Shown here piece after piece: positions 9,473-29,687 of a stretch of DNA of 64,000 bases. This stretch comes from a virus (Duplodnaviria; Caudoviricetes). The position numbers and the translations under genes are program-made. The stretch's first letter is position 1. Each line of letters begins with the position of its first letter. The stretch is from positions 1 through 64,000 of the IMG/VR virus record IMGVR_UViG_3300029288_000148. One strand, 5' to 3'. A model generated the notes under the pieces. That model was not told the DNA's origin, did no database searches, and worked only from the letters and a program-made list of their open reading frames with translations.

Positions 9473-12400
9473 TTACTCTATTTTAAATGTTCCAACTACT
9501 CTGTCCATTGCCTGATCCCATGCTACTCCGTACAGATGCTCAAGCTGTGTCTTGTCTGTCCCTGGCTGCATGTTCTCGCTCTTGCTCTTATAGCTTCGCG
9601 GATCAGTCCCAACCAATGACTTGACTGCCCTGCCATATTCCTCAGTAAGCTTTTCGTTGAATATCCTCGCCTGTTGTAAAGATAGTTCAATTTTCTCCGC
9701 TCCTCTTGATATGGTGCGTGTCTGCTTGATCTCTTTAAAGCCTCCAAACTCTTTCAGCAATCCCCAGACCTTCTCATCTTTCTCCCGAAGCATCAGCCAG
9801 TAAGGATTGTAAAGAAGCTTTTGTTGTTTCAAAGATTCGGTTACTTCGGCCTTATCTACTTTCAGGTTCTTTATCACATCATCCATCTCTTTGCTGAAAT
9901 CGAAATATCCTTTGCCTCCATCTTTGAACTCCTCCCATGAATCCCGGAACCGTATTGCTGTTTCGTGAATGATCAGATCAAGCCGGTCATTTTCCTTTCT
10001 TGCCTCAACATTGGTCATCATGTCATTCTTTAAATTGGCAATCTTCAAATCCCTGATACCTGACATTGTTTGACGAAACTTATTTATTGCAGTCTTATTT
10101 CCTTCATAGAAAGAGAATAGATCCTCGTTCTCCGGTTCAGCCATAAGTTTTTCAAGTCTTTCAAAATCTTCTTTAATTACATGATTATTGAATGACCTGT
10201 TAAGCTTCTCCATCTCGTCAAGCTTGGAATAGAAGTCAGATACATAACTGCTATATGGACCAATGGGTGTTTCTGTCACAAATGCTTTCGTAAATGGCAT
10301 ACGGCTTAATGTAGTAAACAGATCATCCGGCTTCGATTCTACCAAGCCAAGTTCTTGGAGTATCTCGTCCGTTATTCTAACAGCTCCTATCCCTGCACCA
10401 CCGAAATAGCTCTTTATGTAATGCTCCATCTTCAAGGGGCTTGCCCCAACTGCATTTCCGATTGATTTGAGTATTTCCGGTGTTGATTCAAAATACTGTT
10501 CTTCAGGTTTGAGCATGGCTAATGTTTCAGGGATTATCGGCTTCCCTGTATAAGCCTTCTTATTCATTACCATCTCTACCTTTGGTCTGACAATAAAAGG
10601 AATAAGTTCTGAAACATTGCTTATTGGCGAAAAATCTTTAAACAACTCTCTTGCCAAAGACTGTGCTGTTCGGGGATCGTCTTTTGCTGCAAAGTCAAGT
10701 GCCGATTCTACTGTTGAAGCAAATACCATCCCCAAAAATCCTTTTGGCAGTGGGAAATAATTATCTGTCCCAGGGATCCTTATATTAAACATTCCTATTC
10801 TTCTCCATTCTGGAAGGGACTGATAACGTTCCGTGGCCTCCTCATCCCAGTTATTCGCAAGCCAATTCACAATAGCCGGAGCTGTTATTGCCAATCCTTT
10901 TAAGAAAAACTTCTTCGGGTCTCTGCCTACTGCCTCAGTCATCATTCTGGTATGCTGTAACCTGGCATTTAAGAATGGGTATAATGGCAGAATACTCCTC
11001 ATGGCTGCACCGTGGATGCCATAGTCGGCAGATATATCTCTCGATTCTATCGCTGCGGCATATACGTCTCCGGTCTTTTTGTATGCGTTCTTAAATGCTC
11101 CTACCCTGGTGCCCATTTCTGACATACGGGAAAAGTCCTGTAAAGCCAAAAGGGGATTTCTTGAATATGTTTTCCATTTACGATTAAGCGGCCTTCCTAC
11201 TTTCCTTTCTGCGTATTTCTCCTCAAGTAGTTTATCGGATGCTGTAAGAAATGACTGATCTGCTCCACTTGCCATCCATTTCTGAAACATATCATCTTTC
11301 TTTATTGAAGAAAAAATCCCTTTTACAAAATCCACTGGCGAATATCCATGTTTTGAATAAAACCATGCAGATATTTGGTCACGACCTACGTTGCGCACCG
11401 GGAATGTCGGGTCAAACACAACGGCTCCTGCCTGTAACCAACGGGACGGCATACTCATTATTCTGATCAAATGGCTAACCTTTGGCTCGTTTTGAAACAG
11501 ATTATTGTAAGTCTCTGCGTCAACATCATAATATTTGATTTTACCTTCTTCCCAGACACTCAGAATCTTCCCTTTTGGTGCCTTATGCTCCATGATCCAA
11601 GTCATTTCCCCTGTCTTTACATCAAATGCAGGCTTAATGACATTGTTATTTTCGATGAACTGAATCAAAGACTTATCCTCTTTAAGCAAAAACTTATCGC
11701 CCTTGCTTTCTTTTAGTCCGTAGTTCTGAATATCAAATAGCGCATCCCGGACGTTCCGATTATGAATGTTATGCTCTGCTGCAGACAGGATATTATAAGT
11801 ATTCTCAATCATACTGGAAAAAATATCCCGGACCTGTCTTTCTGATCCAAGTCTTTTCCACATTCCCTTTTCGGACGTTGCTAAAACATCCTTGCCCGTG
11901 CCAGCCATTCCCTTACTCTTTTCAAACTCCTCAAATACTCTTCTTAATGGTACATAATACTGGTGCTCCTTCTTAATCTTCTCAATAACCTCTCTCGATA
12001 TTTTCCCCGATTCAGCATAGAAATCGAGCAATGCTTCATTATACTTCTGAACCTTTGATTGAAAGTCCCAAAGCTCCCTCACCCCATATTGCTTTTCGTA
12101 CAGGTCAATCTTTGCCTTGGCATCAGCTATTGGCATAACTGCCTGTTCTGGCTTCCTGTTCTGGTAAGATTCCAAACTATCTTTTGCAAGCAAATAATCC
12201 GAATAATCCCCGTATTTTTTTGAACCTTGAAATAATTTATGGGTTTTTAACACAGACATAAGACCTTCAATGTCTGTTCTTATCTCAATGTCTTTCCCTC
12301 GCTTAAAATAAGGGTGGTATAACAACCATTGCTGCGCCCTGCCATCAATACCCATCATGGCCTTTGCGGAAGCATACGGGTCCTTAAACATCACTGCATT

Positions 12401-15400: not shown

Positions 15401-18400
15401 AGGGATCAATTTAAGTTCCTCTTGCTTATCAGCAATCTTTTTATCGTACTCCTTATTGATCTTATCAATTTGCGCCTGTTGTTCAGGTGTTGCTTTGATC
15501 TCAGACTTTACAGGCTTTTCTTCTGGGACAGATTTGCCCTGATCTTTGCCAGCTTCATCGCCAGCTTTATCAAGTTCGGAGACGGCTTCTCTTTCTTCGT
15601 CTGCCCGTTCTGATTCGATTCGTTCGCGTTCTGCGTCTTCATCTTTAAGTATTTTTTTAACTCGTTCAACATCATTCTTATCAATAATTCCGTATTCGAC
15701 TGCTTTGTCAATATTGTCCAAGGTCAAATCTCCATAGTCCTTCGCAAATGCAACAACCTTCTCATTTGCGATTTCTTCCATTACATCCTTAATTTTAATA
15801 GGTCTGCCTATTTCTTTACCTGGCTTGAGATTGAGTACTCCTCTTTTAAACATATTTTCCAAACCATCAATAACAGCTTGTGTATCAACATTTGCATTGC
15901 CCTTTAAAATATCATCTATTGCCTTGTCTCTTGTTTTAACATCTCCCGGCAAGTCGAGATCATATAAATATACTCTTGCCTCTAACATCATATCAAGGAA
16001 AGTCTTAAACTCCCCCTCCGGAATATCTGCAAGCTTTTTATTGTCGCCCCTGACTGCCGTTTTTCTGACCTTACTGCCGTTTTTCTTGACAACAAGTTTT
16101 TTGCCTTCCATGCCAATTGAATACTTGTCCTTTTCGGATTCGCCCATCAATCGCCGAATGTGACTTCTTATCTCCCCCTGCCTTGATTTGGTTGTGCCCT
16201 TGGCATTATATTCACTCACTAACCCCGCAATCCGATCATTTATGCGAATAGCCTTTTCTTCTGGTGTTTCGACCTTCTTTGGCTCAATGGGTTTTTCTGG
16301 CTCTGACGGCTTCTCCTCTTTGATCTCAGGTGTTTCAGCCTTAACTTCTGGTTTCTCGACAACCCCTTCTTTCCCGGGATCCACAACAATCACGTCCGGG
16401 ATCTCCTCTTTTATAACATCCTCCGGTTTAATATCTCCTTTAGGAATAAAACTGTAATATTTCGCCACAAGTTTATTCTCCTCCGGTGTTCTTTCATTAA
16501 CATTTTTCTCAAGTGCAGATACCAGTAAGGCATCATCAAATCCCTCCTCTTTTAATTTCTCAATGATCTTTGTCTTTTCTTCAATCGGTAATGAAGCAGC
16601 CTTCTCCTGAATCTTCATGTCATTCAATTGCGCCTGATTACGGATAGCAAAAGATTCTGCCTCCTCCGGTGTGCCAAACTTTTTCCTTTCCACTAACACA
16701 CCTTCTTTGTTGACCATATCTACATATACCCCGTTTTGCGTAATCTTATCTCCATAAAGATTAATATCTTCCATTGCGGTTCCCCTCGATGCCCAAAGAA
16801 GCTTCTGTTTTAATCTCGCAGGGATATTTTCATTTTGCAGGATCATACCCAAATACGCATCATCATGTGCGAGTTTCCTTACAAGTGTTTTGTAGTCCTT
16901 TCCCCCAACCGATTCTATCTCATACGGCACAAGATCAACAGCAAATATCCCTTCCCCTGCCTTGTTTGGATTGTATGCTACTGATTTATAAAAGTTCATC
17001 GCCGCTTTTTTCGGATCTTCTATTGCTGATGGTATCCTCCCAACTTTATGTGAAAGCTTTAGCATAGCAAGCATAGCAGCCGTACTAATAAAATCATCTT
17101 TCGTTGCCGGCCTGCCTTCAAGTAATGCTCCTCCTCCTGCGAATAATGCGCTCTCTGCAGTCAGCCCTCCTATTCCTATTGCTCCCTTTGCACCCAATCG
17201 TCCAATAGCATTAGGGATCATTGATGCCTTTTGCGCAAGCATTGATGCCCCAATTCCAAAACCTCCTACGCCAAGACCAAGAACAGAACTCTCCATGCCA
17301 TGTTTAAACACCTGTGACAATCTTATATCATCAAATGATGCATCAGGCACCGCCCATTGCCCAAGGGCATCTGTTATGGCAGAATACGATCCAAGGGCAG
17401 CCGATGAACTACCCATGCCCTGTAATGCTATTGTAGTTCTTTCTGCAGCTTTCAATGCAAACTCCCCAGCAAGCCTCTCCGGAATACCTACCTTAATCAT
17501 TTTCTTAGTAGAATTTTCCATTATTTTCTTCACAAATGGAGCTGCGGCTTTCTTTGTAATAGTCGTTCCAAGTTTCCCCCCAAGACCAAATGCCGGCATG
17601 TCTAAAAGAAATCCCAATACCATTGCCGTTACATCGGTCATAGTGTCGCTGTCATACTTACTCAGCCATTCCTCCGGTGCTCTTGATTCGCCATTAATAA
17701 TGTTATCTGCCAACCCAGTTATGGTTTGATTATACGCCCTGCCAAGGATATATGTAAGCTTTGACGGAGTTTTTAGAAGCATATTAAGGCGATCCTTCTC
17801 CTTTAAAAGTGCAGCTCTCTCCTCAGAAACAATCGGTTTTGAAATAAATGGTCCTGCCGTCGGAAGTATTGTGCCTACCGATTGTTGCTCTGCCGGCAAT
17901 GCAGCAAGTTTCTTGTCTATTTCAGCTAATTCGGCTTCCGTCTTTGTTTTGAAATAGTCTTCGCCAAGTGTTTCACTGATTACTTTTTGTCCAATACGCT
18001 GTTCCTTAAACCCTGCTTTCGGTTCTTCAATCTTTAGCTCTGGCTTTTTTAAATGATCGAATCGCTGTTCCGTAAGATAGTTTCCTATGGAGAATTGCAG
18101 GGTGCTTTTAAAAATATCCTTCCCTGTATATCTGTCTTTCTCTTTTTGTGTTGTTAATAAATCTGAATCTTCTTCTACGTCTTCTGGTTTGGAGACGGTC
18201 TCGGGAAATCCTTCCTCTACTTCCGGCTCTGTTGCTTTACCCTTACGAACCTGGGCAAACATATCTTCAAATACTTTTGCGCTTGGCAAACCATAGTCGC
18301 CAGCTTCTTTTTTTTTTAACCCAAAGGTGTATAAGAACTCATTATAGTCAGAAGGTATCGCATAATTATCTTCCAGTAATTGCTTATGTAGCAAAGAAGC

Positions 18401-18526
18401 ATTTGAAGTGTCTTTAAAAGTCTTTTCAAAAATAGCATAGTCTTCCGGTACCGCATACTGATCTTTCAATAACTGCTGGTGTAGTAAGTCTAAGTCCGGG
18501 TGTTTTTTTACTTCTTGATCTGCCAT
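9473..18526 (-). CDS. 3017-aa polyvalent DNA-ejection/internal virion protein (DarA_C-like, zincin HExxH, LPD38-like domains)
   Basis: YKYRLTSRPFDIGTYP..LTY..LT..E..HYDL (~13718-13878); VLSHELGHWLD (~13100-13130) with downstream EAIAE; PFLNARLQ..LPEWRR..PLPKG (~10300-10980); follows two smaller cargo genes. Confidence 0.75.
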   Translation of the reverse strand: MADQEVKKHPDLDLLHQQLLKDQYAVPEDYAIFEKTFKDTSNASLLHKQLLEDNYAIPSDYNEFLYTFGLKKKEAGDYGLPSAKVFEDMFAQVRKGKATEPEVEEGFPETVSKPEDVEEDSDLLTTQKEKDRYTGKDIFKSTLQFSIGNYLTEQRFDHLKKPELKIEEPKAGFKEQRIGQKVISETLGEDYFKTKTEAELAEIDKKLAALPAEQQSVGTILPTAGPFISKPIVSEERAALLKEKDRLNMLLKTPSKLTYILGRAYNQTITGLADNIINGESRAPEEWLSKYDSDTMTDVTAMVLGFLLDMPAFGLGGKLGTTITKKAAAPFVKKIMENSTKKMIKVGIPERLAGEFALKAAERTTIALQGMGSSSAALGSYSAITDALGQWAVPDASFDDIRLSQVFKHGMESSVLGLGVGGFGIGASMLAQKASMIPNAIGRLGAKGAIGIGGLTAESALFAGGGALLEGRPATKDDFISTAAMLAMLKLSHKVGRIPSAIEDPKKAAMNFYKSVAYNPNKAGEGIFAVDLVPYEIESVGGKDYKTLVRKLAHDDAYLGMILQNENIPARLKQKLLWASRGTAMEDINLYGDKITQNGVYVDMVNKEGVLVERKKFGTPEEAESFAIRNQAQLNDMKIQEKAASLPIEEKTKIIEKLKEEGFDDALLVSALEKNVNERTPEENKLVAKYYSFIPKGDIKPEDVIKEEIPDVIVVDPGKEGVVEKPEVKAETPEIKEEKPSEPEKPIEPKKVETPEEKAIRINDRIAGLVSEYNAKGTTKSRQGEIRSHIRRLMGESEKDKYSIGMEGKKLVVKKNGSKVRKTAVRGDNKKLADIPEGEFKTFLDMMLEARVYLYDLDLPGDVKTRDKAIDDILKGNANVDTQAVIDGLENMFKRGVLNLKPGKEIGRPIKIKDVMEEIANEKVVAFAKDYGDLTLDNIDKAVEYGIIDKNDVERVKKILKDEDAERERIESERADEEREAVSELDKAGDEAGKDQGKSVPEEKPVKSEIKATPEQQAQIDKINKEYDKKIADKQEELKLIPKKIQDAIDKANKERVGLFGDNKPVDPDEIIKREEQGFDLEGAVERIRKPFEERAAQLQREIDDLNSERKGKIEEVLTQGDLFAAAPEKPEIVSDRESFPEYQPNTRTPVTQKLLDMVADVMGVEKYTDSLDSGKYISWLQGGGELGYKVSELLNKPREAYDLIEKYRSDIEKAKSVTPKVEKELPELRSPEVADYDSNQDVDLINRALDRGDKVFKTFYRKKGEEKWRRAYLTSSPDLTEAKARESARRQLLADAEGIPIGRENEALSRYEFKAEEVLPEERKPEMPEVRPTEPDIVTKYVNEMSQKALERAIEDGQKRGIKYSAEDIEKAKAKSIEVNTKHFTALKKEIDAKNLKALQDRNFYNNKNWKNFFEEYTGVKLGKLQRDINANLKKFTEGGVEAPKEKFVPEEIPGYVKYEDYLNSIKEKTKIAVSDWDRNKMISDAIYGLSGDSNKKYRQGLMSFLKGEKVPVAESGIHAIMKEVNKWLTEQKPEIKEVRAEKAPEGAKEYKYRLTSRPFDIGTYPKEGFVRAELEPGERFETLTYGRKLTAQERGHYDLLPLTEISDIKGKLFEDKDGEFFVDLEWKANNIGADVSMFDTKNQLIEKPFFMSTKDILENIEKGYWKEKPDVPPSKPEGLPQRKEALGTRASKNRRWRDKNDRAGNTIKTETKQDAEAIGFGDQLPLSTKEDPAYGGSDLNNSMTLSQISRNLINNLKRKPGGGVRSGMIKRFLKNAAGVFFPDSGIVRIKGLKDFRVLSHELGHWLDFQIFDFRNVVGAKNLPEKYADVAAEIRSVGVKYKGRIYRDFDKIDRDAKEIDKKTNLPRISVIKANELKTKLQPQLAAREKRLAQLRAKYGDNIVAGVLQRDYFKKELADFLMDINYPVSARSKTEAIAEFTWNYIADSKKVETELPKFHAWFEKMLDAAPPIKEALETARKEFKDYADLDPRARRYIENEKKDPWFEGLIKSWDPDKFLYSYVNHLQYMKNLSEEWKKVVGSNAVMFKDPYASAKAMMGIDGRAQQWLLYHPYFKRGKDIEIRTDIEGLMSVLKTHKLFQGSKKYGDYSDYLLAKDSLESYQNRKPEQAVMPIADAKAKIDLYEKQYGVRELWDFQSKVQKYNEALLDFYAESGKISREVIEKIKKEHQYYVPLRRVFEEFEKSKGMAGTGKDVLATSEKGMWKRLGSERQVRDIFSSMIENTYNILSAAEHNIHNRNVRDALFDIQNYGLKESKGDKFLLKEDKSLIQFIENNNVIKPAFDVKTGEMTWIMEHKAPKGKILSVWEEGKIKYYDVDAETYNNLFQNEPKVSHLIRIMSMPSRWLQAGAVVFDPTFPVRNVGRDQISAWFYSKHGYSPVDFVKGIFSSIKKDDMFQKWMASGADQSFLTASDKLLEEKYAERKVGRPLNRKWKTYSRNPLLALQDFSRMSEMGTRVGAFKNAYKKTGDVYAAAIESRDISADYGIHGAAMRSILPLYPFLNARLQHTRMMTEAVGRDPKKFFLKGLAITAPAIVNWLANNWDEEATERYQSLPEWRRIGMFNIRIPGTDNYFPLPKGFLGMVFASTVESALDFAAKDDPRTAQSLARELFKDFSPISNVSELIPFIVRPKVEMVMNKKAYTGKPIIPETLAMLKPEEQYFESTPEILKSIGNAVGASPLKMEHYIKSYFGGAGIGAVRITDEILQELGLVESKPDDLFTTLSRMPFTKAFVTETPIGPYSSYVSDFYSKLDEMEKLNRSFNNHVIKEDFERLEKLMAEPENEDLFSFYEGNKTAINKFRQTMSGIRDLKIANLKNDMMTNVEARKENDRLDLIIHETAIRFRDSWEEFKDGGKGYFDFSKEMDDVIKNLKVDKAEVTESLKQQKLLYNPYWLMLREKDEKVWGLLKEFGGFKEIKQTRTISRGAEKIELSLQQARIFNEKLTEEYGRAVKSLVGTDPRSYKSKSENMQPGTDKTQLEHLYGVAWDQAMDRVVGTFKIE

Positions 18527-18539
18527 GTTATTTCATTTA

Positions 18540-19976
18540 TCAACGTCCTGTTTTTCCGGGAATATAAACATCGGGTTTCCCATACTCCTTGCCGCCAACA
18601 CCTTTTTTCTCAACCCTCGGTATTTCTCCGGGTGTTCTGAAGTCCTTACCCCCAATACTTTTATATTGAGGTTCTGTGTCTCCAAACACATCCTTAAATC
18701 GCTTTATAACACCATCGACCTCAACCGGCAATTCATCTACCCTGTCTCCAAGGTTCTTCCTCGGCACTGCAATAGTTTCATTGTTGCGAGCATAAGGGAA
18801 ATCACTGCTCTGCGTCAATCTGAATAAAAACTCATCCCTTTGTGCATCGTAAAACTCCAAAGTACCTTCCAAGTCTCCTCCTCCCTCCATCGGTTCCCAT
18901 TCATCGCCATAAAATCTCGATGCTCCTTTTGCTCCAATAGGTATCCGGAATGTTGTATTTGAATCAAATTCCCACGGTGCCTGATAAGTCCTCCCCGCTG
19001 CCCCCGTGCCATATATGAGCGGGGTTTTCTTTTCCATCCCGGCTTTCATATTAACACTCTGACCAAGGAAGCTGAAATTTAATCCTCCTTTTCCGGATCC
19101 TCCTCTGACAGTAGTTCTTTCCTTGGAAGCATATTCTGGTAAGAATCTTCTCCTTATCCAATCCTCCAATGTCTCACCTTCCTTCTTTTCAACTGCATAA
19201 GCTTTCTCCGTAGATATTCTTATATCCTCCGGTGCGCTGCGAACATTAGAGGCTGCTTTGTTTATTGCAGCATCAATCCTCTTTGTTGAAGTATATTCCC
19301 TGTGAGTAATAGTTGTCTTTCCCGTTGCAGGATCAAACTGAATATCGTCCGGATGAACATCCGTACCTTTAATAAGATTGTCAAATTGTGTTGCAAAGTA
19401 TTTTCCAATGTCTGCCGGCTGGAATTTGTTCATCAATAAGTTCCCCTGTAATATCTTTGATCTCTCCAACACATTTCCTTCGGAAGTAAAATATTTCTCA
19501 AGCCTCTTTGCTGATTCTGCCCAATCAACGGTCTGATCGTTTAATGGTTTCTGTTTCTGTACTTCAATTATCTTCTTATACTCATCCACGGCGGCCTTGT
19601 TCCTTTGCCAAACATCATTCTTTTGTTTTATCTCAAGTAACTTTTGATTGAAAGCTTTTGATAATTTCTGTTCTCCAATGTTCTCCGGTCTTATAAGGTT
19701 CATCCCTTTTGCAGCAACATCAACCCATTGGGATCTCAATTCATTCAATTCATTGCTGATCTCATCAAATCCTTTCTGGTCCTCCCAGCTCTTTATATCA
19801 ACCTCGTCAAATCGGTCAAGACCTTTTTGCATCTCGGCCTCCTGTTGTTTACGCCTCTGAAAAGCTACCTGAGACAGCGTTGCCTTTGCCTGCTTCATCT
19901 CCTGAATAGGATCATAAGAAGACTCCCCGTAAAAAGGTGCTGCTATAAAATTGGGATCAAGTTTACCGTTTGCCAT
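18540..19976 (-). CDS. putative internal virion (ejection) protein
   Basis: Helical N-terminus; position between pilot-like gene and giant cargo gene. Confidence 0.55.
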   Translation of the reverse strand: MANGKLDPNFIAAPFYGESSYDPIQEMKQAKATLSQVAFQRRKQQEAEMQKGLDRFDEVDIKSWEDQKGFDEISNELNELRSQWVDVAAKGMNLIRPENIGEQKLSKAFNQKLLEIKQKNDVWQRNKAAVDEYKKIIEVQKQKPLNDQTVDWAESAKRLEKYFTSEGNVLERSKILQGNLLMNKFQPADIGKYFATQFDNLIKGTDVHPDDIQFDPATGKTTITHREYTSTKRIDAAINKAASNVRSAPEDIRISTEKAYAVEKKEGETLEDWIRRRFLPEYASKERTTVRGGSGKGGLNFSFLGQSVNMKAGMEKKTPLIYGTGAAGRTYQAPWEFDSNTTFRIPIGAKGASRFYGDEWEPMEGGGDLEGTLEFYDAQRDEFLFRLTQSSDFPYARNNETIAVPRKNLGDRVDELPVEVDGVIKRFKDVFGDTEPQYKSIGGKDFRTPGEIPRVEKKGVGGKEYGKPDVYIPGKTGR

Positions 19977-19977
19977 T

Positions 19978-20727
19978 TTAATACTTATTTCTCAAATAAT
20001 CCTGAAAGGTATAATCTCCTGTGCTTAAACCAAAATTATTAGTTGTGGCAGGAGCTGAAATATCTGTAGCATTTTTATTTGTTATTTTTTTAATTAATTC
20101 ATCAATTTCCTTTGCTGAGAACTGTCCGGTCCCGGTATTATATCCCTTCCCATACAATGCTGTATAAATGTCCGGCTGTGCTGCTGCGGATGCCACGCCG
20201 GCAATGTTTTTCACCCCTGCCATCATATTCTGCGCACCGGCGTTTCTCAACTGCATGGCTTTCTCTGCTGCCTGAAGATATGGAAGTTCTTTGTTCCAGT
20301 AGTCAACACGCCTTTCTTCCTCATAAGCGGGACCGGAAAGTACATTCATATAATCACCTCTTGCCCCGGATACCTGTTGTGCTGTCAATCTTGCAAGATC
20401 AGCTATGGATGACTGTTCACCCTGAACAAGTTTGCCAAGCATGCCATAAGCCTCAGAACCGGCACCTAACTGCGTAGCAGCCCTTATTCCTGCCGATGTA
20501 GCCCCTTTTATCTCGTTGCGGTACAACTCTCCACCAGGAATGTCCTGATCCAATGTACGCCCATAAGAATAACCCAGAAGGCGTTTTATTGCATCCGATG
20601 TTTCCGCTGTTGGCCTTGGATTTTGCTTCTCAAGTTTATTGGCTCTGGACATCTGCACCGCTCCGGAAATACCCTGTATTGCCGAAGATGCCGCACCTAT
20701 TAATGCCATTAATGTTATCGGGTCCAT
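19978..20727 (-). CDS. putative DNA pilot/ejection protein
   Basis: MDPITLMALIGAASSAIQGISGA Gly/Ala-rich N-terminus typical of podovirus ejection proteins. Confidence 0.6.
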   Translation of the reverse strand: MDPITLMALIGAASSAIQGISGAVQMSRANKLEKQNPRPTAETSDAIKRLLGYSYGRTLDQDIPGGELYRNEIKGATSAGIRAATQLGAGSEAYGMLGKLVQGEQSSIADLARLTAQQVSGARGDYMNVLSGPAYEEERRVDYWNKELPYLQAAEKAMQLRNAGAQNMMAGVKNIAGVASAAAQPDIYTALYGKGYNTGTGQFSAKEIDELIKKITNKNATDISAPATTNNFGLSTGDYTFQDYLRNKY

Positions 20728-20739
20728 ATCTTTTTTCTT

Positions 20740-23523
20740 TTAATAACTTCGTTCACTGTTTGTTGAAAAAACTATTGCAGAATAAATTCTGACTTTTTCC
20801 TCATGCTCAGTTGTCTGCAGTCTGACTAAGCAATATCTTCCTCTCATCTCCCTGCCATTCATAGTCCTTGCATTCTCTGTTGCAAAAGTACCAGGAGTAT
20901 TCTGATCTTTTAATATCTGACCATAATAAACTCCCTCTCTATTTTCCCAGACGGCAATGTATGTTTCCATCAGCGCATAACCAGCCTCTTTGGGAATGGT
21001 AACATATCTTGACAAGGAATCCATTTGATGATCACAATAAAGAGCAAGAGCATTAAACACCTTTACTTTCCCGGGATTTATGTTAGAAGGAAATTGTACT
21101 TCTGCAAAAACATTCTCTCCGGCCCACTTCAAATATCCCTGACCTTCATCAACATTCATTATATAAAGACGCTGATTGTAAATGTGTGCAAAGAAATTAC
21201 CAAGATGAACATATCCGTCTGTTGGCTGGTTTAACCTCGAAATCCACTGGCCACGGTTCTCACTAAATATAGCACCGGTTATTTCTTCTTTTACCCGGAA
21301 AGTAACCCAAATCTCATTATGTTCTACGTTTGCCCCGGACCGGACCTCAAGATTACCGCTACCTCCGTTTAACTGAATCCATCTTAACAGATCCTTAAAC
21401 CACCGCTTCATCTTTATATCAGAAATCTCAATCTGCCCGTTTGCCGCAGACCGGATATACTTCCCTTCGGTGTTATCCCAATAATATAGGTATCGATCAT
21501 TGTTGAGAATACTATCCGGGTGTTGACAGCCATAATCATTCTCCATAGGTCTTTGCGTGCCAAGAAGATTATCTATAAGGGTGAATTGTTCTGTGCCATC
21601 AGGATTAAATGTTTGTATTCTTTGAATATAAACACTCGTTTCCTTGTGCATCTGCACCACTTTCAAAGTAAATCCTATCTCCCTCAGTCCGGTTATTGCT
21701 CCATTCTTTTTCGGAAAGTCGATATAATCCTCAAAAGTGAAATGTGCCAGGTTGTTTATCTGTGTACCGGTAATAAGAAATCCTCCGTGCCTTAATCTCT
21801 CCGGCAAAACATTTTGTCTTAACGGGATCTTGGAATATAAGAATGGCCATCCCTGAGAAGTAAGCTTTGTCTGGTTTTCCCACCAATCGCTCGGCGCATT
21901 GCTTTCTGCCCAAAACTGATATATCTGATCCGATTCATCACGGTAGTTTAGCCGAATATATTTCCATGCATCATTGGCAGTATTATAAACTTGCGCATAA
22001 GTCTCCGTTATCTTATTTTCATTTATGTACTGATCAATGTCTCCCTTGTGATATTTGTGTCCAAATTCATTTGTGGCAATATCATAAACCATCCCTGTCC
22101 CGTAGTAAGTAGTAATGCCCAATCCCTTCCTTGGTCTATAAATCTCGACAAGAATATTATCCATTCCCTCAAAGTCTGTCGGATGATCAATAGCCTGTAT
22201 TAAAAGCCAATCAACTCCTATTGCCTCTCCATACTGTGTGCCGGTCTGTTCTATCTCATAGTCATAAACGTCTGTATATTCTGTAACAACTCCTGTTCCA
22301 TCGTCAATGCATGCAATTAATCTCATTCGGTCTCCCTCTTCCCAAATATAATCCGGCACTTTCCATCTTCTGTTTTGGTTCCTTGTATGATCAATAGTGT
22401 CTTGTATCATTACAGAATATCGATCATTGCCAATATCATAAATGGCATTTGCCCTCATCTGAACAAAGAAGTCCATTGATACATTGCCGGCATATACTAT
22501 CTCATAAGTATCTGCCCAAGACGGGGGATTGTGACCTATCTTAAAGGTAAGAAGCGCAATTGATGAAAGTAATATCCCAGGATCTTCTTCTGCATACCAC
22601 GGCAAATAAACCTCCATGGCTGAACACCTGATCACTGAACACTGCCTCCCGCAATTATCTTTGTAAACAATACCAAAGCTATGTGTTGCTCCATTTTTCA
22701 GCACAGGATATTTGGCAGTCAGGCCAAGGTCAAGGATATATGCTGTGACTGTCCATCCTTCAAAGACTGTGTTTATGTCGCCTGGCTCAATATACGGTGA
22801 CTGAACAAATCTTCCTGATCTATACAATACCGCAATTTTATAATCTGATGGATGCCCAACAAAAGGTATCTCATTCGCCGTCATAGATGCCTGTAGTCCA
22901 TTCTTTACGTCAAGATAAGTATTGCCTGCCACTGCAAGATAGGACGCTATCTTATCAAACCCAGGACCTTGTACGCGGACATAATAAAAGCACCCCTCTC
23001 TTATAGTTAAAGGAATAGAAATAAAAAACGATCCTTCAATATTTCGATAAATAGTACTCGATCCATCCTCTCCTCTTTCATAATCCCAATATCCTCCCCC
23101 ATAAGGTGTCCCTGGCTCTTTTGTATTATTATCTGCATTTGCCCTCCAAATAATCTGCACTCCAAATGTATCTGGATGAGAAACCAAATCTCCCTTTTTA
23201 TAATTATAGCTCGGCAACCAGTTCTGTACTGTTATAGTAGTATAAGTTATCGGTGACTGAGTAAGTTTTGTTCTTAAATCATACTGTGATGCTTCTGGAG
23301 CTTTATTTTCATAATCTATTTCTGTTTCAACAATTGGTTCTACTCCGTCATAACCTTCAGTAATACTTCCCAGAACAATAGCATTTCCACAAATTAACTC
23401 CATGTGCCCGGCCTTAATAGGAACATAAGTAAATGGTTCTGCAACCTCCCCTGCAGAAATAACCTCTTTTACCCTGTCGTTGTAAAAGTTATACCTAATA
23501 TCCGTGTTATGACCGTAAATCAT
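20740..23523 (-). CDS. tail muzzle/stabilisation protein (P22 gp10/crAss-like), C-terminal fragment, with inserted CBM5/12-like module
   Basis: Starts mid-family at YNFYND..PFTYVPIKA..ELICGN....ITEGYD; later HSFGIVYKD..GRQ, GFTLKVVQ, REGVYY, EMRGRY; NWLPSYNYKKGD..YWDY insert. Confidence 0.75.
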   Translation of the reverse strand: MIYGHNTDIRYNFYNDRVKEVISAGEVAEPFTYVPIKAGHMELICGNAIVLGSITEGYDGVEPIVETEIDYENKAPEASQYDLRTKLTQSPITYTTITVQNWLPSYNYKKGDLVSHPDTFGVQIIWRANADNNTKEPGTPYGGGYWDYERGEDGSSTIYRNIEGSFFISIPLTIREGCFYYVRVQGPGFDKIASYLAVAGNTYLDVKNGLQASMTANEIPFVGHPSDYKIAVLYRSGRFVQSPYIEPGDINTVFEGWTVTAYILDLGLTAKYPVLKNGATHSFGIVYKDNCGRQCSVIRCSAMEVYLPWYAEEDPGILLSSIALLTFKIGHNPPSWADTYEIVYAGNVSMDFFVQMRANAIYDIGNDRYSVMIQDTIDHTRNQNRRWKVPDYIWEEGDRMRLIACIDDGTGVVTEYTDVYDYEIEQTGTQYGEAIGVDWLLIQAIDHPTDFEGMDNILVEIYRPRKGLGITTYYGTGMVYDIATNEFGHKYHKGDIDQYINENKITETYAQVYNTANDAWKYIRLNYRDESDQIYQFWAESNAPSDWWENQTKLTSQGWPFLYSKIPLRQNVLPERLRHGGFLITGTQINNLAHFTFEDYIDFPKKNGAITGLREIGFTLKVVQMHKETSVYIQRIQTFNPDGTEQFTLIDNLLGTQRPMENDYGCQHPDSILNNDRYLYYWDNTEGKYIRSAANGQIEISDIKMKRWFKDLLRWIQLNGGSGNLEVRSGANVEHNEIWVTFRVKEEITGAIFSENRGQWISRLNQPTDGYVHLGNFFAHIYNQRLYIMNVDEGQGYLKWAGENVFAEVQFPSNINPGKVKVFNALALYCDHQMDSLSRYVTIPKEAGYALMETYIAVWENREGVYYGQILKDQNTPGTFATENARTMNGREMRGRYCLVRLQTTEHEEKVRIYSAIVFSTNSERSY

Positions 23524-23532
23524 TTCTTTTTG

Positions 23533-23952
23533 TTAAGTGATGTAAATAACCCCACGGGCATTCCATGTTATTGTGGATGTGCCATTGGTAACAATCTGGT
23601 TTATCAGCATATTTATAATACACAGGATTCTTGATGTCGCTGGATTGCCAGAATTTACATAAATGGCAATATATTGATAGTCCAAGTATGCCCCTGGCCC
23701 AATTACCGGATTGCTGGTAAAATCCAAATAGGCATTATTCCCCTCATAACCAGCCGTATTTCCCGTCAATTTAAACCCCCCGGCCGTATATACTCCTCCG
23801 GTGTCCGTAACTTCATTTGCAGATACCTGTGAGATGTACTGCTGATTTGCTGCGTCCTGAACATGCGTGTCTTTTAGCAACATCGCATAAATATTCTCTC
23901 CTGCCCAGTCTGTTGCAATTTTGTTTTTTTCGAATTTTGGAATTATACTCAT
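23533..23952 (-). CDS. small beta-rich virion structural protein
   Basis: ANEVT..GGVYTAGG..L and TNGTSTITWNA motifs of a widespread phage tail protein family. Confidence 0.6.
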   Translation of the reverse strand: MSIIPKFEKNKIATDWAGENIYAMLLKDTHVQDAANQQYISQVSANEVTDTGGVYTAGGFKLTGNTAGYEGNNAYLDFTSNPVIGPGAYLDYQYIAIYVNSGNPATSRILCIINMLINQIVTNGTSTITWNARGVIYIT

Positions 23953-23964
23953 GATTTTAAAATT

Positions 23965-25746
23965 TTAAAATTCTTCACTTCTCAAATATACTGCAATAGT
24001 TTCTCCGGCGTTAGGGACAGAGATTAAATTAATAATTACCATATTTTCTTGTAAATTATTTGCGGAGAACGATCCGGCACTTCCCTTCCAAACGCCATTA
24101 ACTAATTCTCTCCAATAAATTGTAAATACTTCGCCCGCCGCCTTCCCTGGATATGTCGGAGTAAAGGTTAGTGCTATTTCAAGGTAGCCCACATAGGCTG
24201 ATGCGCTTTTTGTCAAATAATCTATTGTTAGTCCATTCGGATCTGAAAATCCCACCAATAACGAACAATATATCGGGACTGATGGTATTACAGGATGTTC
24301 ATCTTGCAATACATCTAACGAGAAAATGCTTCCTGCGATATTTTGCATAATGACACTCCCTGTTAGTGGATTGTAAGTATCATTATTAACAATTGGATAC
24401 ATCCTTATCGTTTCCCCATTTGCAATATTATCCAATGCAACTAAGTTATTCCCAAGAGAATCTATTACTTGCATCCATGAGGGGAACGAAGATAATATTG
24501 CATCTCCTGGCCCTACGGATATTGTTACTGCCTTTGCTGCTGATATTCCTATCTCTGCGAAACTCTCATTATAAACCCATTCAAGAGAACTTTCAGATAG
24601 ATTAACATATACATTTGTTATGGTTGGCACTCTTATGCTTAATGCCATAGTCCCATATAATGGAGCGACTACGGCTGAGTTTGTTATTATCGGAAGCTTT
24701 ATTGTCAATGCCATTGTTGAATAGCTTGGCATTGTCAACTTACTACCCTCTGCAAGTATTGTCTGAGATACTTCTTCAATCCCAAACTTATCAATCTCCT
24801 CGACTAAAAACCACGTTGAAGGATCTTGGCTACTTCTTCCAATAATCCTTATCTTCCTTACCTCCTCACCTCCGGTGTTGACGACTATCTCAAGTGCATT
24901 GTTCTGTGAAATAATCTCGGTGGCTTGCCCTGTTGCTACTTCCTCTTCTGCTTGCGGTAATGCAACAATGCTGGCTGGGGAATAAGTACTTTGTCTGAAA
25001 TCAAGGTAAACATAGTTGTATGCAAACTGAAATAATGTTTGCCGAAGTCCGTTTATCTTTCTCGAATCATCAGTCTTATAAGTAACAACAGGCGGCTTGT
25101 CCGGAGGAATAGGTGCAAAATAAAAGTTCTTAACATTCATGGAATAATATGCCTCGTCAATAAGGCAAAGCTGTTCCCAGTATGTTGTTTCGCTTCGCGG
25201 ATCAAAATTCGTTCCCGGGACAATACATTTATAAAAATGCTTTCCTTTTGAAACGATCTGTCCTGCCTGATAAAAAACTGTTTCATCCCATGCAGTAGTT
25301 GTTGGGTATGGATCGTAGCCAATACCATAGAAGAATGACTTTTTCGCCCTTTCAATATCTATTTGATAAACCGGATTTAAATTATCGGTAAATATCAATT
25401 TGCCATGGACAACCCTTGCATTACGAATCCTGTTCAACTTATTCAACCCAAGTGCATTGTTATCATTGAAATAAACAACGGCAATAACTCTTGTGTCGAT
25501 CTCTATCTCAAATATCCAATCACGGTTATAATAAGTATCAAGATAAATGAGATACAGTTTCCGGTGTTCTTTGTCAATAGCTTTTCCCAAAAGGAATGTC
25601 GTGTACTTTGAATGAGTTCCCGGATTGATCGTTCCAGTATCTTTTATCAGCCTGACAGAAAGATAATAAGTTTTGAGTGTAACGGCTTTTATCGCTTCTG
25701 CACTATCATAAGACAAATAGAAATATTTTCCAAGAAGATCACTCAT
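23965..25746 (-). CDS. muzzle middle fragment fused to repeat and BACON-like domains
   Basis: LGKAIDKEHRKLY, LIFTDNLNP..IDI, FQFAYNYVY.D..STYSP, NTGGEEVRKIRI; CBM5/12-like insert; then TMAL.I..P.ITN x2 and a BACON-like segment (LSESSLEW..PSWMQV..TGSV..LQ). Confidence 0.7.
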   Translation of the reverse strand: MSDLLGKYFYLSYDSAEAIKAVTLKTYYLSVRLIKDTGTINPGTHSKYTTFLLGKAIDKEHRKLYLIYLDTYYNRDWIFEIEIDTRVIAVVYFNDNNALGLNKLNRIRNARVVHGKLIFTDNLNPVYQIDIERAKKSFFYGIGYDPYPTTTAWDETVFYQAGQIVSKGKHFYKCIVPGTNFDPRSETTYWEQLCLIDEAYYSMNVKNFYFAPIPPDKPPVVTYKTDDSRKINGLRQTLFQFAYNYVYLDFRQSTYSPASIVALPQAEEEVATGQATEIISQNNALEIVVNTGGEEVRKIRIIGRSSQDPSTWFLVEEIDKFGIEEVSQTILAEGSKLTMPSYSTMALTIKLPIITNSAVVAPLYGTMALSIRVPTITNVYVNLSESSLEWVYNESFAEIGISAAKAVTISVGPGDAILSSFPSWMQVIDSLGNNLVALDNIANGETIRMYPIVNNDTYNPLTGSVIMQNIAGSIFSLDVLQDEHPVIPSVPIYCSLLVGFSDPNGLTIDYLTKSASAYVGYLEIALTFTPTYPGKAAGEVFTIYWRELVNGVWKGSAGSFSANNLQENMVIINLISVPNAGETIAVYLRSEEF

Positions 25747-25747
25747 C

Positions 25748-28219
25748 CTATAAAGTAATTACTTCAATTATGTAATTCATCAAAACATCGTCCGTTGATG
25801 AGCTATCAACACTCACGGACATTATTATATTCCCCGAACTAAGAGAACTTGTTATTGTAATACCAACATTGTCGCCATAATATTCCACCGATTGATCTGT
25901 TAATGGGTTTTTGTTAATGATAAACACTGTCCCCATCTGGTCATTTGATCCTCGTCTTGCAGCATAGTCTATTATAACTGCGCTATCTGTTGATAAATTT
26001 CCTACGACAATATTGGTTACAGCTCCATAAGGAAGTATCCCTTCAGGAATGACAGGTTCAGGTTCTTCTTCAGGAAGAACATTCGTTATACAATTAATAC
26101 TATTCTGCTCAAATTGAGGATTCCCTCCAATTTCATCCCATGATACTCCATTGTCAACCGATCTCCAAATATCTCCGGTGTCATCACCTATTAAGATAAC
26201 TCCATCAGCAATATGCGTAGCGCATAGTATCGATGTGGCAATTCCCAAAACATTTATTTCTGTTGTAAAATCATCATCAGTATAACTTATGCTTTCAGTG
26301 TTACAGCTAAATAGTATCCTTGATCCATTTGCGCCAATTATGAAATTTACCTTATTACTACCAAAGCTTCCCATGTCTGCCCAACTCTCTCCTCCGTCAG
26401 CCGATCTCCATATATGACCATCAGTATCTCCCGCATATATATTTGATGAACTATCTGTATAGGCTGCAGAAAAACCACCTGCCTGTTTTAAGGAATAAGT
26501 TGCGCTATCAATAGTCCAATTATAAATACCTGTACTGGTAATAAGTATTACATTCGTTTCGTCAATGAAAGAAGATCCATAAAGTACTCCCAGATTTAAT
26601 CCGGAAGACTTAAATGTTGCTCCACCATCTATACTGTAATTAAGGTTCCCAAGGGCATCAGAAACTACAACTACCTCCTGAAATGCTCCGATGTGGTAAA
26701 TATGATCCGATCCGGCACTCCCAGCATAAGTATAATATCCTGTTGAATAGTTAATAACTCTGCCTTGGTCGGTGCTATAAATTATATCACCATTTCCAAG
26801 TCTTGCAAAACTTGTCGGATTGCCCAGATTAAAACTGCCTTCATTTACAAATGTTATTCCAACGTCAACGGATCTGAGAATTAATCCACCTATCGATGTC
26901 CCTGCCAAGATGAAACTTTCGGAATCGATACTCAGCGATTTAACAAGTCGAACATTGGCTACTACAAGATTTTTATCTAAATGTTCTGTTGTCCAAAAAA
27001 CTCCACTATTAGAAACAAGGTAAGGCATATAAATCTCTGTTTCATCAAACATTTCGCTTGTTGCAAAAAATGCAAATTCTTTTATACTGGAAAAAGAGGC
27101 ATCAATCTTATTTCTATATCCTCCCCCAAGCGCAGTAAATCCTGATTCGTTTGTTGCTCCGGTATTAGGGGCGTTCCAATGAACTAATCCAGTTTCCTTC
27201 ATCTTCCCGCCTGCGTTATATGCTCCACCAATCGCACTCGCTAATTTTGCCCAATCCTGTAATGTAGGAACTCTCCACCCTTCTTCATGAACACCATTAC
27301 GAAGCATATAGGCTATTCCCTTGGCATTTGTATAGGCATAGGCGCTATAGATAATGCCATAATCGCGATATGTAACCGGATCGTTATCATACCAACAATA
27401 TCCTCCATTATGCCCTGCACTGCCATCTTCTGCAAGCCAATCCGCATCTAAGGTAAGGTTTGGTATTGCTGTCCCGTCAGCGTATTTTGTGACTATTAGG
27501 TTTTCGATAAGCCAAACTTGGTTGCCAACAACAACTTCTGTGTAAATATTCCCATCCAGATCAGTAAGCACACCAATGTCAGCGTCTTTCAGCCAAAACG
27601 TAGCTTTCTCTTTTAAAAGCTTAAATATCGTATCAAACATTCCACAGGGAAGTGCGGTAAAATTACTTGAGTTATCTGCTAAAAGGTTTGGCGATGCCCA
27701 ATGAGTAAGTCCGGCCTCCTTCATCTTTGCCCCAGCCACTAATGCACCGCCAAGATATGACATCAATTCGTCAAAATCTGATTCAAAAGGCACCCTCCAC
27801 CCTGCAGGCGCAAAATCCCCTTGTTGTATCATATCCCAATTATAAAGCCCCCCACAGGACACCCTGTTTTCTTCATCATCATTAAATACTTTGCTCCCGG
27901 GATAATCAAAATCCCAATTCTTTCCCATCCATACCTGATCTCCAATTGCGACTTCCGGATAACCCTCGTAAATGAATTGTGATCCAATGGCCCCGCCATA
28001 ATAACCAGGAATAGAGGCGTCAATCAATAGCTCCACCTCTGCAAGTAAGGTTTCCATTAATCCAAACCCTTGCTGTTCGTCACTGGAAGCCACCCTTACG
28101 TTCAGGGCATCGAGATATTCTCCGTTTAAGAAATTCTCAACATCCTCTGGAGAATGATCTTTATTCATCCCCAGCGAAAAACGCCGCTCATCGTGATTTT
28201 GTCCCTGATTCTGCCTCAT
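25748..28219 (-). CDS. muzzle N-terminal fragment fused to two FISUMP (Fib_succ_major) domains, BNR beta-propeller and C-terminal beta domain
   Basis: FSLGMNKD..NGEYLDALNVRV muzzle N-terminus; IGDQVWMGKN/VGNQVWLIENL and GWRVP FISUMP motifs; repeated S.DGG.TW Asp-boxes. Confidence 0.75.
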   Translation of the reverse strand: MRQNQGQNHDERRFSLGMNKDHSPEDVENFLNGEYLDALNVRVASSDEQQGFGLMETLLAEVELLIDASIPGYYGGAIGSQFIYEGYPEVAIGDQVWMGKNWDFDYPGSKVFNDDEENRVSCGGLYNWDMIQQGDFAPAGWRVPFESDFDELMSYLGGALVAGAKMKEAGLTHWASPNLLADNSSNFTALPCGMFDTIFKLLKEKATFWLKDADIGVLTDLDGNIYTEVVVGNQVWLIENLIVTKYADGTAIPNLTLDADWLAEDGSAGHNGGYCWYDNDPVTYRDYGIIYSAYAYTNAKGIAYMLRNGVHEEGWRVPTLQDWAKLASAIGGAYNAGGKMKETGLVHWNAPNTGATNESGFTALGGGYRNKIDASFSSIKEFAFFATSEMFDETEIYMPYLVSNSGVFWTTEHLDKNLVVANVRLVKSLSIDSESFILAGTSIGGLILRSVDVGITFVNEGSFNLGNPTSFARLGNGDIIYSTDQGRVINYSTGYYTYAGSAGSDHIYHIGAFQEVVVVSDALGNLNYSIDGGATFKSSGLNLGVLYGSSFIDETNVILITSTGIYNWTIDSATYSLKQAGGFSAAYTDSSSNIYAGDTDGHIWRSADGGESWADMGSFGSNKVNFIIGANGSRILFSCNTESISYTDDDFTTEINVLGIATSILCATHIADGVILIGDDTGDIWRSVDNGVSWDEIGGNPQFEQNSINCITNVLPEEEPEPVIPEGILPYGAVTNIVVGNLSTDSAVIIDYAARRGSNDQMGTVFIINKNPLTDQSVEYYGDNVGITITSSLSSGNIIMSVSVDSSSTDDVLMNYIIEVITL

Positions 28220-28986
28220 CTCTTAGGTGTCTGTCTATAAGTCTTGTACAGCATCCGTTTGTACTCGTCTTTTGTAAATGCTGACTGAAAATATCTTAAT
28301 GCCTCGATTTCTTCTTCATGTCCTCTTTTTCTTCTTTCTTTTTCGGTATAAGGTGTTCTTGAATCAAATTCAACCATTTGCCACAAAATGTATGTTCTTA
28401 TGGCCGGCACACATTCTCTGGGAATAGCTGAAGATCCTGTTGCTTTTACTCCGGAAGAAATATATTCCAGAACAATTTGGGATCTTGGCACCGATCCGGT
28501 AAACACAATTGTCCCCATCTCCCTGTCAAAACGGTAATAAGCATCATCAATGCCTCCGGGCATGCCATATAACCCCCCGACAAACTGCCCTCCTCGAAAA
28601 TGATCTGAAAAATATACCAATGATGCTGCATCAACCGTGTCATCTGCATCTGTATTCCCTACAGGCGTTCCGTCCGGAAATGTCCTTGGTAAAAGTATTT
28701 GTTGGTGGTTTGTTAATACCCTTAGTTTGCCATTTATCGGAACACCTATCTTCAGCCAATCCACAAAGTCTGCCGGAAGCGTAACTACTTTTGCTGAGTT
28801 CATTTCAAGATATACAACTTCGTAATTGTCGATATGGAAAAGATTTAACTCTGTATATCCGCTTATTGCAAGTTGCATAAGTCTGTAATAATGCCTCATG
28901 GAATAGTCTCCAAGCAGGTTTAAGACACTCATGACAATATATCTTAGTGTAACTACTCCCGGGGTTTTTGGTGAATCAAAGCTCAT
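28216..28986 (-). CDS. tail ring / head-tail connector protein
   Basis: LPADFVDWLKIGV and VLEYISSG motifs of crAss-like ring proteins; position. Confidence 0.65.
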   Translation of the reverse strand: MSFDSPKTPGVVTLRYIVMSVLNLLGDYSMRHYYRLMQLAISGYTELNLFHIDNYEVVYLEMNSAKVVTLPADFVDWLKIGVPINGKLRVLTNHQQILLPRTFPDGTPVGNTDADDTVDAASLVYFSDHFRGGQFVGGLYGMPGGIDDAYYRFDREMGTIVFTGSVPRSQIVLEYISSGVKATGSSAIPRECVPAIRTYILWQMVEFDSRTPYTEKERRKRGHEEEIEALRYFQSAFTKDEYKRMLYKTYRQTPKR

Positions 28987-28997
28987 TTATTTCATTA

Positions 28998-29687
28998 TTA
29001 AAATTGGTTTGGCCTGTTGGCTACCTGGTCCGGAGCTAAATCCTGTGGTGGTTTATTTCTCAAAAACTCCACAGTTTGCTTTACAAGAATATCTTCCTGT
29101 CCTGCGGGCATAGCAATATCATCATAATCACCTATCTGATCAAGGGGCACGATCATTTTTACATTAAGAGTAAATGGGTCAAACATCGAATATAGATTGT
29201 ATGTCGATAGCGGGATTTTTGCAAGCCTTAAAATATGCGATGCCCCCGCAAGCAGTGTGTTATTCATCTCAAGCCGAAAAGTAGGAGTTGCATCAATTGA
29301 CGATACTTCAAGTTCGTTAAAGATTGCAACAGCAGTATTGTCAAGATATGCAAAAACTATATTATCGTCTCCTTTCACCGCAACTTCTCTTATCCCCATA
29401 TTGTCCGGAAGCTGCATTGGGGGATATGGTAATCTTATATGACCGCTTACAAGGCTTCCGGCAGTAACGGCATCATATAATTCAAGCTCATACGTATATG
29501 TCCACGCATCAAGCTGGCTGTAATCGGTAAACTTCTTACAGTTTAACCATACTTGGTACACAACCTGGTTAAACGCATTTTCCAGATATTTCTTTATGAT
29601 AGCAGGATGATATTGTCCAATCATATCATCCGGATGCCCACTGGCAAGGAAATCTCCCACCAAATCGACCAGGTTTTCTTTTTTCAT
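28998..29687 (-). CDS. putative tail ring protein
   Basis: Helix-beta-helix layout like neighbours; position between ring genes. Confidence 0.55.
   Translation of the reverse strand: MKKENLVDLVGDFLASGHPDDMIGQYHPAIIKKYLENAFNQVVYQVWLNCKKFTDYSQLDAWTYTYELELYDAVTAGSLVSGHIRLPYPPMQLPDNMGIREVAVKGDDNIVFAYLDNTAVAIFNELEVSSIDATPTFRLEMNNTLLAGASHILRLAKIPLSTYNLYSMFDPFTLNVKMIVPLDQIGDYDDIAMPAGQEDILVKQTVEFLRNKPPQDLAPDQVANRPNQF

Follow-up and report, generated by a model that had tools for sequence, protein, structure and literature searches.

Can a crAss-type tail muzzle be assembled from three separate chains, or is a muzzle gene that seems to be broken into pieces better explained as misassembled, decayed or rejoined in some way? 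The question is raised by a locus in the first 64,000 nucleotides of the IMG/VR virus record IMGVR_UViG_3300029288_000148 (Caudoviricetes), the whole stretch of DNA analysed here, which we refer to as the window. A first-pass annotation had read consecutive segments of a muzzle from three open reading frames (ORFs) of 823, 593 and 927 amino acids (aa), here called F1, F2 and F3, with a 139-aa gene (g139) placed between the last two; the sizes, order and positions it gave are exactly confirmed, with all four ORFs on the minus strand, as is every other gene of the region (Table 1). To our knowledge, the muzzle is both the most conserved and the least understood part of the crAss-type tail, and has been thought of as one giant chain. 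We consider it very likely that this locus encodes a genuine three-chain muzzle, homologous to the gp44 muzzle of crAss001 and to nozzle proteins, in which newly created C-termini carry arms.

Tiling, fold and predicted assembly of the three fragments

When aligned by BLASTP with P0092, an unsplit homologue of 1230 aa, the three ORFs fall in order and, the few residues shared at the first boundary apart, without overlap: F1 17-71 corresponds to P0092 12-63 (E 4e-6), F2 42-318 to 59-332 (E 1e-47) and F3 11-926 to 351-1229 (E 2e-143). A second unsplit protein, from locus L005, gives an equal tiling pattern, and the profile phrog_14478 matches both F2 (profile positions 165-278) and F3, again collinearly. 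Four residues of F1 (G17, D21, Y35 and G53) are invariant, being common to the N-termini of seven unsplit muzzles (alignment A5). The proposed succession of muzzle segments, the ~280 aa ascribed to F2 and the assignment of the whole of F3 to the muzzle are therefore borne out; the start of F1 is likewise muzzle-derived, although over 50-60 aa rather than the ~75 aa suggested, and the three parts do add up to a full-length protein, although to one of ~1250 aa (1230-1256 aa in unsplit relatives) rather than ~1300 aa. The first 56 residues of F3, where the third fragment begins, are strongly conserved (FYND, FTYVPIKAGH), with predicted local distance difference test (pLDDT) values below 50 when F3 is folded alone, and end where the stretch aligned with gp44 from residue 315 sets in; further along, relatives carry insertions of ~90 aa near F3 aa 450. 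A tblastn search of 50,697 phage records with F3 and F2 returned no match, and a word-index search with F1 1-90, which by the limits of that method found only four close relatives, was replaced by a comparison of loci and a full hidden Markov model search.

The arrangement is shared well beyond this one genome. The order 256-aa gene, F1, F2, ~140-aa gene, F3 and 249-aa gene is found in the window and in 16 related split loci from many samples, and one further contig, cut upstream, retains the ~140-aa gene and F3. The F3 genes of the related loci are fully open and 46-59% identical; F2 has 110 or more cluster representatives, in which the N-terminal 330 aa are conserved, and F1 homologues of 432-1107 aa sit at the same position in relatives. 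In nine unsplit loci (order 254-aa gene, muzzle, 212-274-aa gene) a single gene of 1158-1250 aa is flanked by the same neighbours as the split muzzle. The unsplit muzzles P0090-P0096 of sister environmental phages (1230-1256 aa; loci L002 and L005) are 31-37% identical across the three fragments and have the same flanking genes, but they are one chain, without a FISUMP insert behind the N-terminal module, and no g139 homologue was found alongside. In a maximum-likelihood tree the split forms make up one clade (Shimodaira-Hasegawa-like approximate likelihood ratio test, 100), sister to unsplit forms and with unsplit outgroups, from which we take the split to be of single origin and derived.

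A profile of the N-terminal, ring-joining (R) module of F1 (60 aa) matched 2379 cluster representatives; for the 150 best listed, the module is without exception confined to the first 67 residues. Among the best 147 of these, 37 are full-length muzzles and ~80 have the module followed by other, non-muzzle-like sequence, some of them being truncated ORFs, while several cease to match the muzzle profile at other positions; given these different continuations and end points, fission may be recurrent. The reverse step may also have occurred. In one of the 16 split loci (L028, 2247-4832), F1 and F2 form a single ORF of 861 aa, in the order R module, FISUMP, Lcl_C, F2 leader, propeller blades 1-2 with IG1, and linker; its nearest relatives, L029 and L030, have F1 and F2 separate and are three-piece, and L028 looks like a secondary, natural re-fusion of the split gene. 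As the two lie in one frame there, F1 and F2 must be neighbours in the particle.

The link to gp44 comes from fold. Searches of PDB sequences by phmmer, with F1, F2, F3 and a profile of unsplit muzzles, did not find gp44. By predicted structure, the top Foldseek match of F3 is the crAss001 muzzle (7QOL_P, E 2.5e-13), and VIA-align places F3 54-922 on gp44 315-1371 with Z 9.0 and 458 residues aligned (the overall root-mean-square deviation (rmsd) of 23.7 Å is owed to different domain placement). F2 26-322 aligns with gp44 (7QOK_A) 62-269 at Z 9.0, with 188 residues and an rmsd of 4.2 Å, when 48,161 chains were searched independently of Foldseek; gp44 is the best structural match for F2 and the tied-best for F3. 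The elements of the muzzle fold occur in the expected order (R module, propeller, IG1, IG2 with the crass domain), and the likeness to gp44 takes in the seven-blade propeller, the position of IG1 between blades 2 and 3, the insertion of IG2 with its crass domain in blade 3, and a genomic place between ring-type virion genes and cargo genes. In gp44, IG1 comprises residues 163-292 and IG2 begins at 318 (PMC10172136); taken with the F2 and F3 alignments, these limits put the second split between IG1 and IG2, at a connection that is an 18-residue loop in the unsplit relative. The Pfam family crAss_MUZ_C (PF25729) matches P0031, an F3 homologue of 51% identity, with 28.4 bits (cut-off 27), and the unsplit P0098 with 30.0 bits.

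A multimer-type prediction was made with F1 1-75 as partner, F2 1-330 and two propeller-bearing parts of F3. F1 docked on F3 and F2 with an interaction prediction score from aligned errors (ipSAE) of 0.87 in three runs, whereas the best of three controls scored 0.00; in the calibration of the tool, 58 of 80 solved complexes and 2 of 110 mismatched pairs attained this mark. At least 77% of contacts are common to the runs, the partner pLDDT is at least 72, and F1 6-69 is set against F3 704-708, 735-765, 779-818 and 896-922, with F2 66-93 also being touched; in the model of F3 by itself, residues 767-803 are disordered. We take this outcome, as a prediction, to support binding.

We suggest a model in which F1 would supply the ring-joining module of ~50 aa, F2 propeller blades 1-2 and IG1, and F3 the remaining blades, IG2, the crass domain and the C-terminus, with the parts reassembling non-covalently through strand and blade complementation following coupled, roughly equimolar translation, as the tight gene spacing suggests. 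Both breaks would lie at surface connections (from the R module to blade 1, and from IG1 to IG2), and each would free a C-terminus carrying strings of glycan-binding-type domains. Were the assembly a hexamer like that of gp44, twelve peripheral arms would stand at the tail tip as an exchangeable host-recognition platform; we infer both this stoichiometry and the binding of receptors by the arms. The natural split-protein scaffold envisaged in the first-pass annotation is thus supported by the tiling, by conservation across the clade, by the variability of the arms and by a controlled docking prediction.

Several points weigh against this view. The F3 of the window has no Pfam match, even at E 10, and the connection to gp44 depends on fold predictions with low global template modelling (TM) scores and on transitive homology; the F3 model is only moderately confident (mean pLDDT 68.5). 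The docking result may in part be due to what the prediction model has learnt of nozzle and muzzle folds made of one chain; in its set-up, too, the job departed from those used to calibrate the tool (four chains, alignments supplied by us, and F3 in two pieces), and its score covers the F1 partner only. The binding functions of the arms, too, are putative, being taken from domain names only.

Junctions and rival explanations

A muzzle gene interrupted by stops might still yield a single chain, whether by readthrough, stop-codon reassignment, frameshifting, ribosomal hopping, splicing or DNA rearrangement, and rejoining at the RNA or DNA level had been put forward as the less likely option when the locus was first described. 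Recoded muzzle genes do exist, in zeta crAss-like phages (PMC12386605), and F2, g139 and F3 share one frame in the window (junctions at 23953-23964 and 23524-23532), with agreement among relatives above one in three. This shared frame may be the trace of an ancestral in-frame cassette insertion and, as the loci are related, the excess is maybe nothing other than such a trace. Set against a single chain, frames agree at junctions 1, 2 and 3 in 4 of 10, 7 of 9 and 6 of 10 loci, and so inconsistently between relatives; the gaps at the junctions vary from -8 to +18 nt, some of them holding further stops; and the stops themselves are TAG, TAA and TAA in the window and mostly TAA in relatives, not TGA. 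The combination expected of stop-codon reassignment, in-frame TGA or TAG together with a suppressor tRNA, was not found: the window has no tRNA genes, suppressors included, and under code 11 its long ORFs, one of them of 3017 aa, are uninterrupted. The same starting methionine is, moreover, present in most of the 95 F3 homologues listed. Inteins and introns were dropped as candidates, since Pfam and NCBIfam reveal no intein or homing-endonuclease domains in F1 or F2 and the intervening sequence consists of conserved, folded domains. At the level of DNA, contigs from an independent study span junctions 1 and 3 with no indels, while none extends 31 letters past junction 2 in both directions; the candidate joints that contigs did offer had sides of 20-38 letters and low likeness, and came from other organisms or repeats, which leaves no credible joined form. 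Given the TAA stops, the varying frames and gaps, the lack of a suppressor tRNA in the window and the contigs free of indels, we reject rejoining and regard a single chain, by whichever route, as very improbable. Scarcely credible at all is the idea that the stops are assembly errors, or that the locus is a pseudogene of a defective phage, which has in its favour the unusual arrangement alone: the source record, of which the window is a part, is a complete virus record of 75,772 bp with direct terminal repeats, the contigs of the independent study are unchanged over junctions 1 and 3, and the same split architecture is conserved, with F3 open, in the 16 related loci from different samples.

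A different division of labour would make F3, perhaps with the N-terminus of F2, the muzzle, and F1 a fibre with a muzzle-derived docking tag, possibly at another site or with a different stoichiometry. The R module is indeed short, the ~80 of the best 147 representatives in which it precedes non-muzzle-like C-termini would suit a portable tag, and short N-terminal docking peptides are common in podophage fibres, as with crAss001 gp22 on the hub (PMC10172136). However, the module makes up the first 60 muzzle residues of unsplit relatives, F2 and F3 hold no substitute for it, and in L028 it is covalently joined to F2; in the predicted complex it pairs strand by strand with F3 ~780-820 and 910-922, which are disordered without it. 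On balance we think this arrangement improbable, and in practice it differs little from the three-chain muzzle that we favour.

The arms, g139 and the surrounding locus

The modules first ascribed to the two arms are supported to differing degrees. In F1, two FISUMP copies exceed the Pfam cut-off (PF09603, 150.6 bits against 33.9; TIGR02145, 134.2 against 41.65), of which the first covers positions 1-155 of 187 in PF09603 and 11-139 of 176 in TIGR02145, in a stretch that is 46-58% identical in all F1 homologues. The putative propeller that follows (F1 430-718) has four Asp-box-like motifs and, although Pfam BNR and Sortilin fall below cut-off (E 0.006-0.015), structural matches in the Atlas reach TM 0.77-0.83 over 254-280 residues. 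The last 97 residues, the beta domain, are 37% identical (E 2e-13) to a free-standing 104-aa ORF of the same genome at 40376-40690 (minus strand); this shared domain could be a docking or oligomerisation module that links F1 to the upstream fibre-like block. In F2, the linker holds a pair of strand-like repeats (330-375) with pLDDT below 50 when F2 is folded alone, and a similar pair recurs in most of 44 homologues compared, short forms of 392-394 aa among them. The BACON-like domain (F2 380-486) aligns with the BACON domain of a B. ovatus GH5 protein (3ZMR_B 42-131) at Z 10.5 and rmsd 2.2 Å over 87 residues; Pfam BACON (PF13004) has no match in the window's F2, and matches the equivalent domain of the L011 F2 with 28.8 bits against a cut-off of 25. 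The final domain (F2 490-593) is modelled as all-beta with pLDDT of ~85-95, and tandem Ig-like matches dominate the Foldseek list.

The first split probably cuts a FISUMP domain inserted behind the R module, and not the muzzle chain directly. This reading turns on the F2 leader, whose motif SVRLIKD resembles FISUMP ends and whose profile aligns with the final 30 positions, out of 209, in a 10-sequence FISUMP profile (hhalign P 0.0013, probability 19%). The leader has no match in Pfam or NCBIfam, hhalign was negative with one FISUMP sequence as the target, and a four-sequence profile performed no better than shuffled leaders.

Among relatives the arms differ widely. Clustering of the F2 extensions, with a Pfam scan of selected proteins, gave lengths from 43 to ~900 aa and contents of FN3 arrays, BACON, beta-helix and FISUMP, and F1 arms carry LRR, FN3, Lcl_C and BNR. 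It is on account of these differences that we regard the locus as a hot spot of module exchange; such exchange would fit a role in host recognition, to which the domain types point. Three near-identical loci with a short F2 of 394 aa, L008, L009 and L010, have an extra gene (4762-7551 in L008) between F2 and the g139 homologue, encoding a Pel9A-like right-handed beta-helix protein of 929 aa (63.5 bits); this is a tailspike/depolymerase-type gene in the same hot spot.

The 139-aa gene had been described as unrelated and lying between the second and third fragments. Its presence there stands, but it is no stray: in each split locus examined, a homologue of 138-150 aa directly precedes F3, and none was found in the complete genomes of three unsplit phages that are more distantly related. 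Distant homologues end minor-tail clusters in actinophages, and we infer from its company that g139 is a tail protein associated with the arms. A PDB profile search gave only a chance match, and Pfam scans of 12 family members nothing consistent. Its identification as a fibre protein of the GP4 gp80 type was set aside, having an Atlas lead (0.87) only, with hhalign against the Gp80-annotated gene of L005 negative; such a link is speculation.

Upstream of the muzzle block are genes of the terminase, portal and capsid type. The TerL protein is 26-31% identical to the terminases of Cellulophaga phi13:2 and of Flavobacterium and Maribacter phages; with the gene setting, this marks the virus, whose record originates from landfill-type metagenomes, as an environmental crAss-like podophage, and its host is probably a member of the Bacteroidota. 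Downstream of the muzzle block, the 3017-aa ORF (9473-18526, minus strand) resembles a polyvalent cargo protein, and not a recognisable virion RNA polymerase, in view of the precomputed DarA_C and LPD38 matches in its equivalents among relatives. The 256-aa gene just upstream of the muzzle also varies: it is tandemly duplicated in L013 (1491-3134), its equivalents in L004 (2847-3923) and L017 (2250-3329) have an insert of ~100 aa, and GIY-YIG/NUMOD and I-HmuI-like endonuclease genes adjoin it in L004 (2121-2846) and L005 (8642-9232). A promoter and terminator scan of 19900-29100, whose coverage leaves Bacteroidota-type promoters outside, gave counts near those of shuffles and none at the junctions.

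Two further observations concern the muzzle parts themselves. The muzzle portion of F2 contains a CBM5/12-like motif (aa 152-190; 25177-25293, minus strand) that is sub-threshold (Pfam E 0.0034; chitinase A1 1ED7, E 0.42) and, being present in the unsplit P0092, predates the split; a comparable sub-threshold motif occurs at 101-136 of the F3 homologue P0032. The R module, for its part, also heads giant proteins of 3174-3827 aa (P0261, P0265, P0267, P0268, P0304 and P0313), whose likeness to the unsplit muzzle profile extends to about position 1135, with ~2000 further residues behind it; here the trend runs the other way, towards a muzzle with a very long fused extension.

Table 1. Genes and modules of the split muzzle locus, with their positions in the window.
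Feature	Position	Strand	Evidence
F1, 823 aa; muzzle fragment 1 and adhesin arm	25748..28219	-	ORF; N-terminus homologous to unsplit muzzles
R (ring-joining) module, F1 aa 14-62	28034..28180	-	Invariant residues, profile search, complex prediction
FISUMP domain 1, without the last ~30 model positions, F1 aa 90-213	27581..27952	-	PF09603, TIGR02145
FISUMP domain 2, complete, F1 aa 229-427	26939..27535	-	PF09603 1-187, 96 bits
BNR/Ycf48/sortilin-type propeller, F1 aa ~430-715	26075..26932	-	Motifs, sub-threshold Pfam, Atlas
C-terminal beta domain, F1 aa 727-823	25751..26041	-	Homologous to free-standing ORF
F2, 593 aa; muzzle fragment 2 and arm	23965..25746	-	ORF
F2 leader, aa 7-36, putative last strands of FISUMP 1	25639..25728	-	hhalign, of moderate strength
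Muzzle propeller blades 1-2 and IG1, F2 aa 42-322	24781..25623	-	BLASTP, phrog_14478, fold match
Linker with two strand-like repeats, F2 aa 326-375	24622..24771	-	Period-22 repeat
BACON-like beta-sandwich, F2 aa 380-486	24289..24609	-	VIA-align
Second Ig-like beta-sandwich, F2 aa 490-593	23968..24279	-	Model, Foldseek
g139, 139 aa; small tail-associated protein	23533..23952	-	ORF; phrog_644
F3, 927 aa; muzzle fragment 3 (remaining propeller, IG2, crass domain, C-terminus)	20740..23523	-	ORF
New N-terminus and IG1-IG2 segment, F3 aa 1-56	23356..23523	-	Aligned to P0092 351-400
IG2 and crass-domain region, F3 aa 57-547	21883..23355	-	Confidently modelled; within gp44 315-1371
Remaining blades and strands pairing with the F1 module, F3 aa 548-927	20743..21882	-	Propeller matches, contacts

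Known muzzles and nozzles, and the meaning of the split

The muzzle of crAss001 is a single chain of some 1.4 kaa, for which surface insertions have been found to account for variation in length (Bayfield et al. 2023; PMC10172136). In the window there is not one polypeptide per protomer but three ORFs, each with a start and a stop of its own, produced by two cuts, each with a long C-terminal arm, and accompanied by an extra small gene; the phage itself is nearest to the Cellulophaga phi13:2, Flavobacterium and Maribacter phages and not to gut Crassvirales. In the zeta crAss-like phages the muzzle gene likewise seems broken under the standard code, but there the in-frame TGA is read as Trp and one chain results (PMC12386605), whereas here the stops are TAA and TAG, the frames differ from one relative to another and no fragment is without a start of its own.

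The closest parallel in design is the split nozzle of the Pseudomonas podophage A1002, made of nozzle-rope gp39 and nozzle-base gp42 (PMC13730344, PLoS Biol, November 2026). In both, a nozzle protein that is ordinarily one chain is encoded as separate chains that complete each other's platform and propeller by strand complementation, and an extension of one piece serves, or here would serve, host attachment; for our locus, completion of the protomer by separate chains is indicated by tiling and by predicted docking. The A1002 nozzle differs in having two pieces, another break point and another phage lineage, and its extension, in place of a string of lectin-like domains, takes the form of a rope on which separate fibre dimers dock. 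Set apart by break point and lineage, the two splits are most likely independent events.

It might also be asked whether the present locus is itself an attachment system of the nozzle-rope kind, arrived at independently of A1002. Here the F2 repeat pair would form docking sites, kept even in the F2 forms that lack further domains; g139 would bind by beta-sheet augmentation, much as the fibre dimers of GP4 and A1002 do; and the FISUMP domain divided between F1 and F2 would hold the first split together, giving a three-chain scaffold with two different inter-chain zippers and exchangeable fibres. We think this elaboration of the three-chain muzzle rather doubtful.

Full-text literature searches turned up no earlier description of a split muzzle of the crAss type. 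The design of a three-chain muzzle is well supported computationally, and is not a new principle. What it would mean is that a whole clade builds its muzzle from three chains and displays variable, glycan-binding-type domains on the two new ends. The split would mark connections in the fold that tolerate breaks, which may be of use in engineering and in the reading of cryo-EM maps, and annotation pipelines and gene callers will call such pieces unrelated hypothetical proteins or adhesins. For uncultured phages of the Bacteroidota type, the tail tip, beyond the side fibres, is thereby indicated as a site of host range; and, together with A1002 and the other break points seen among relatives, the locus suggests that fission at insertion sites may be a recurrent route in the evolution of phage tails.

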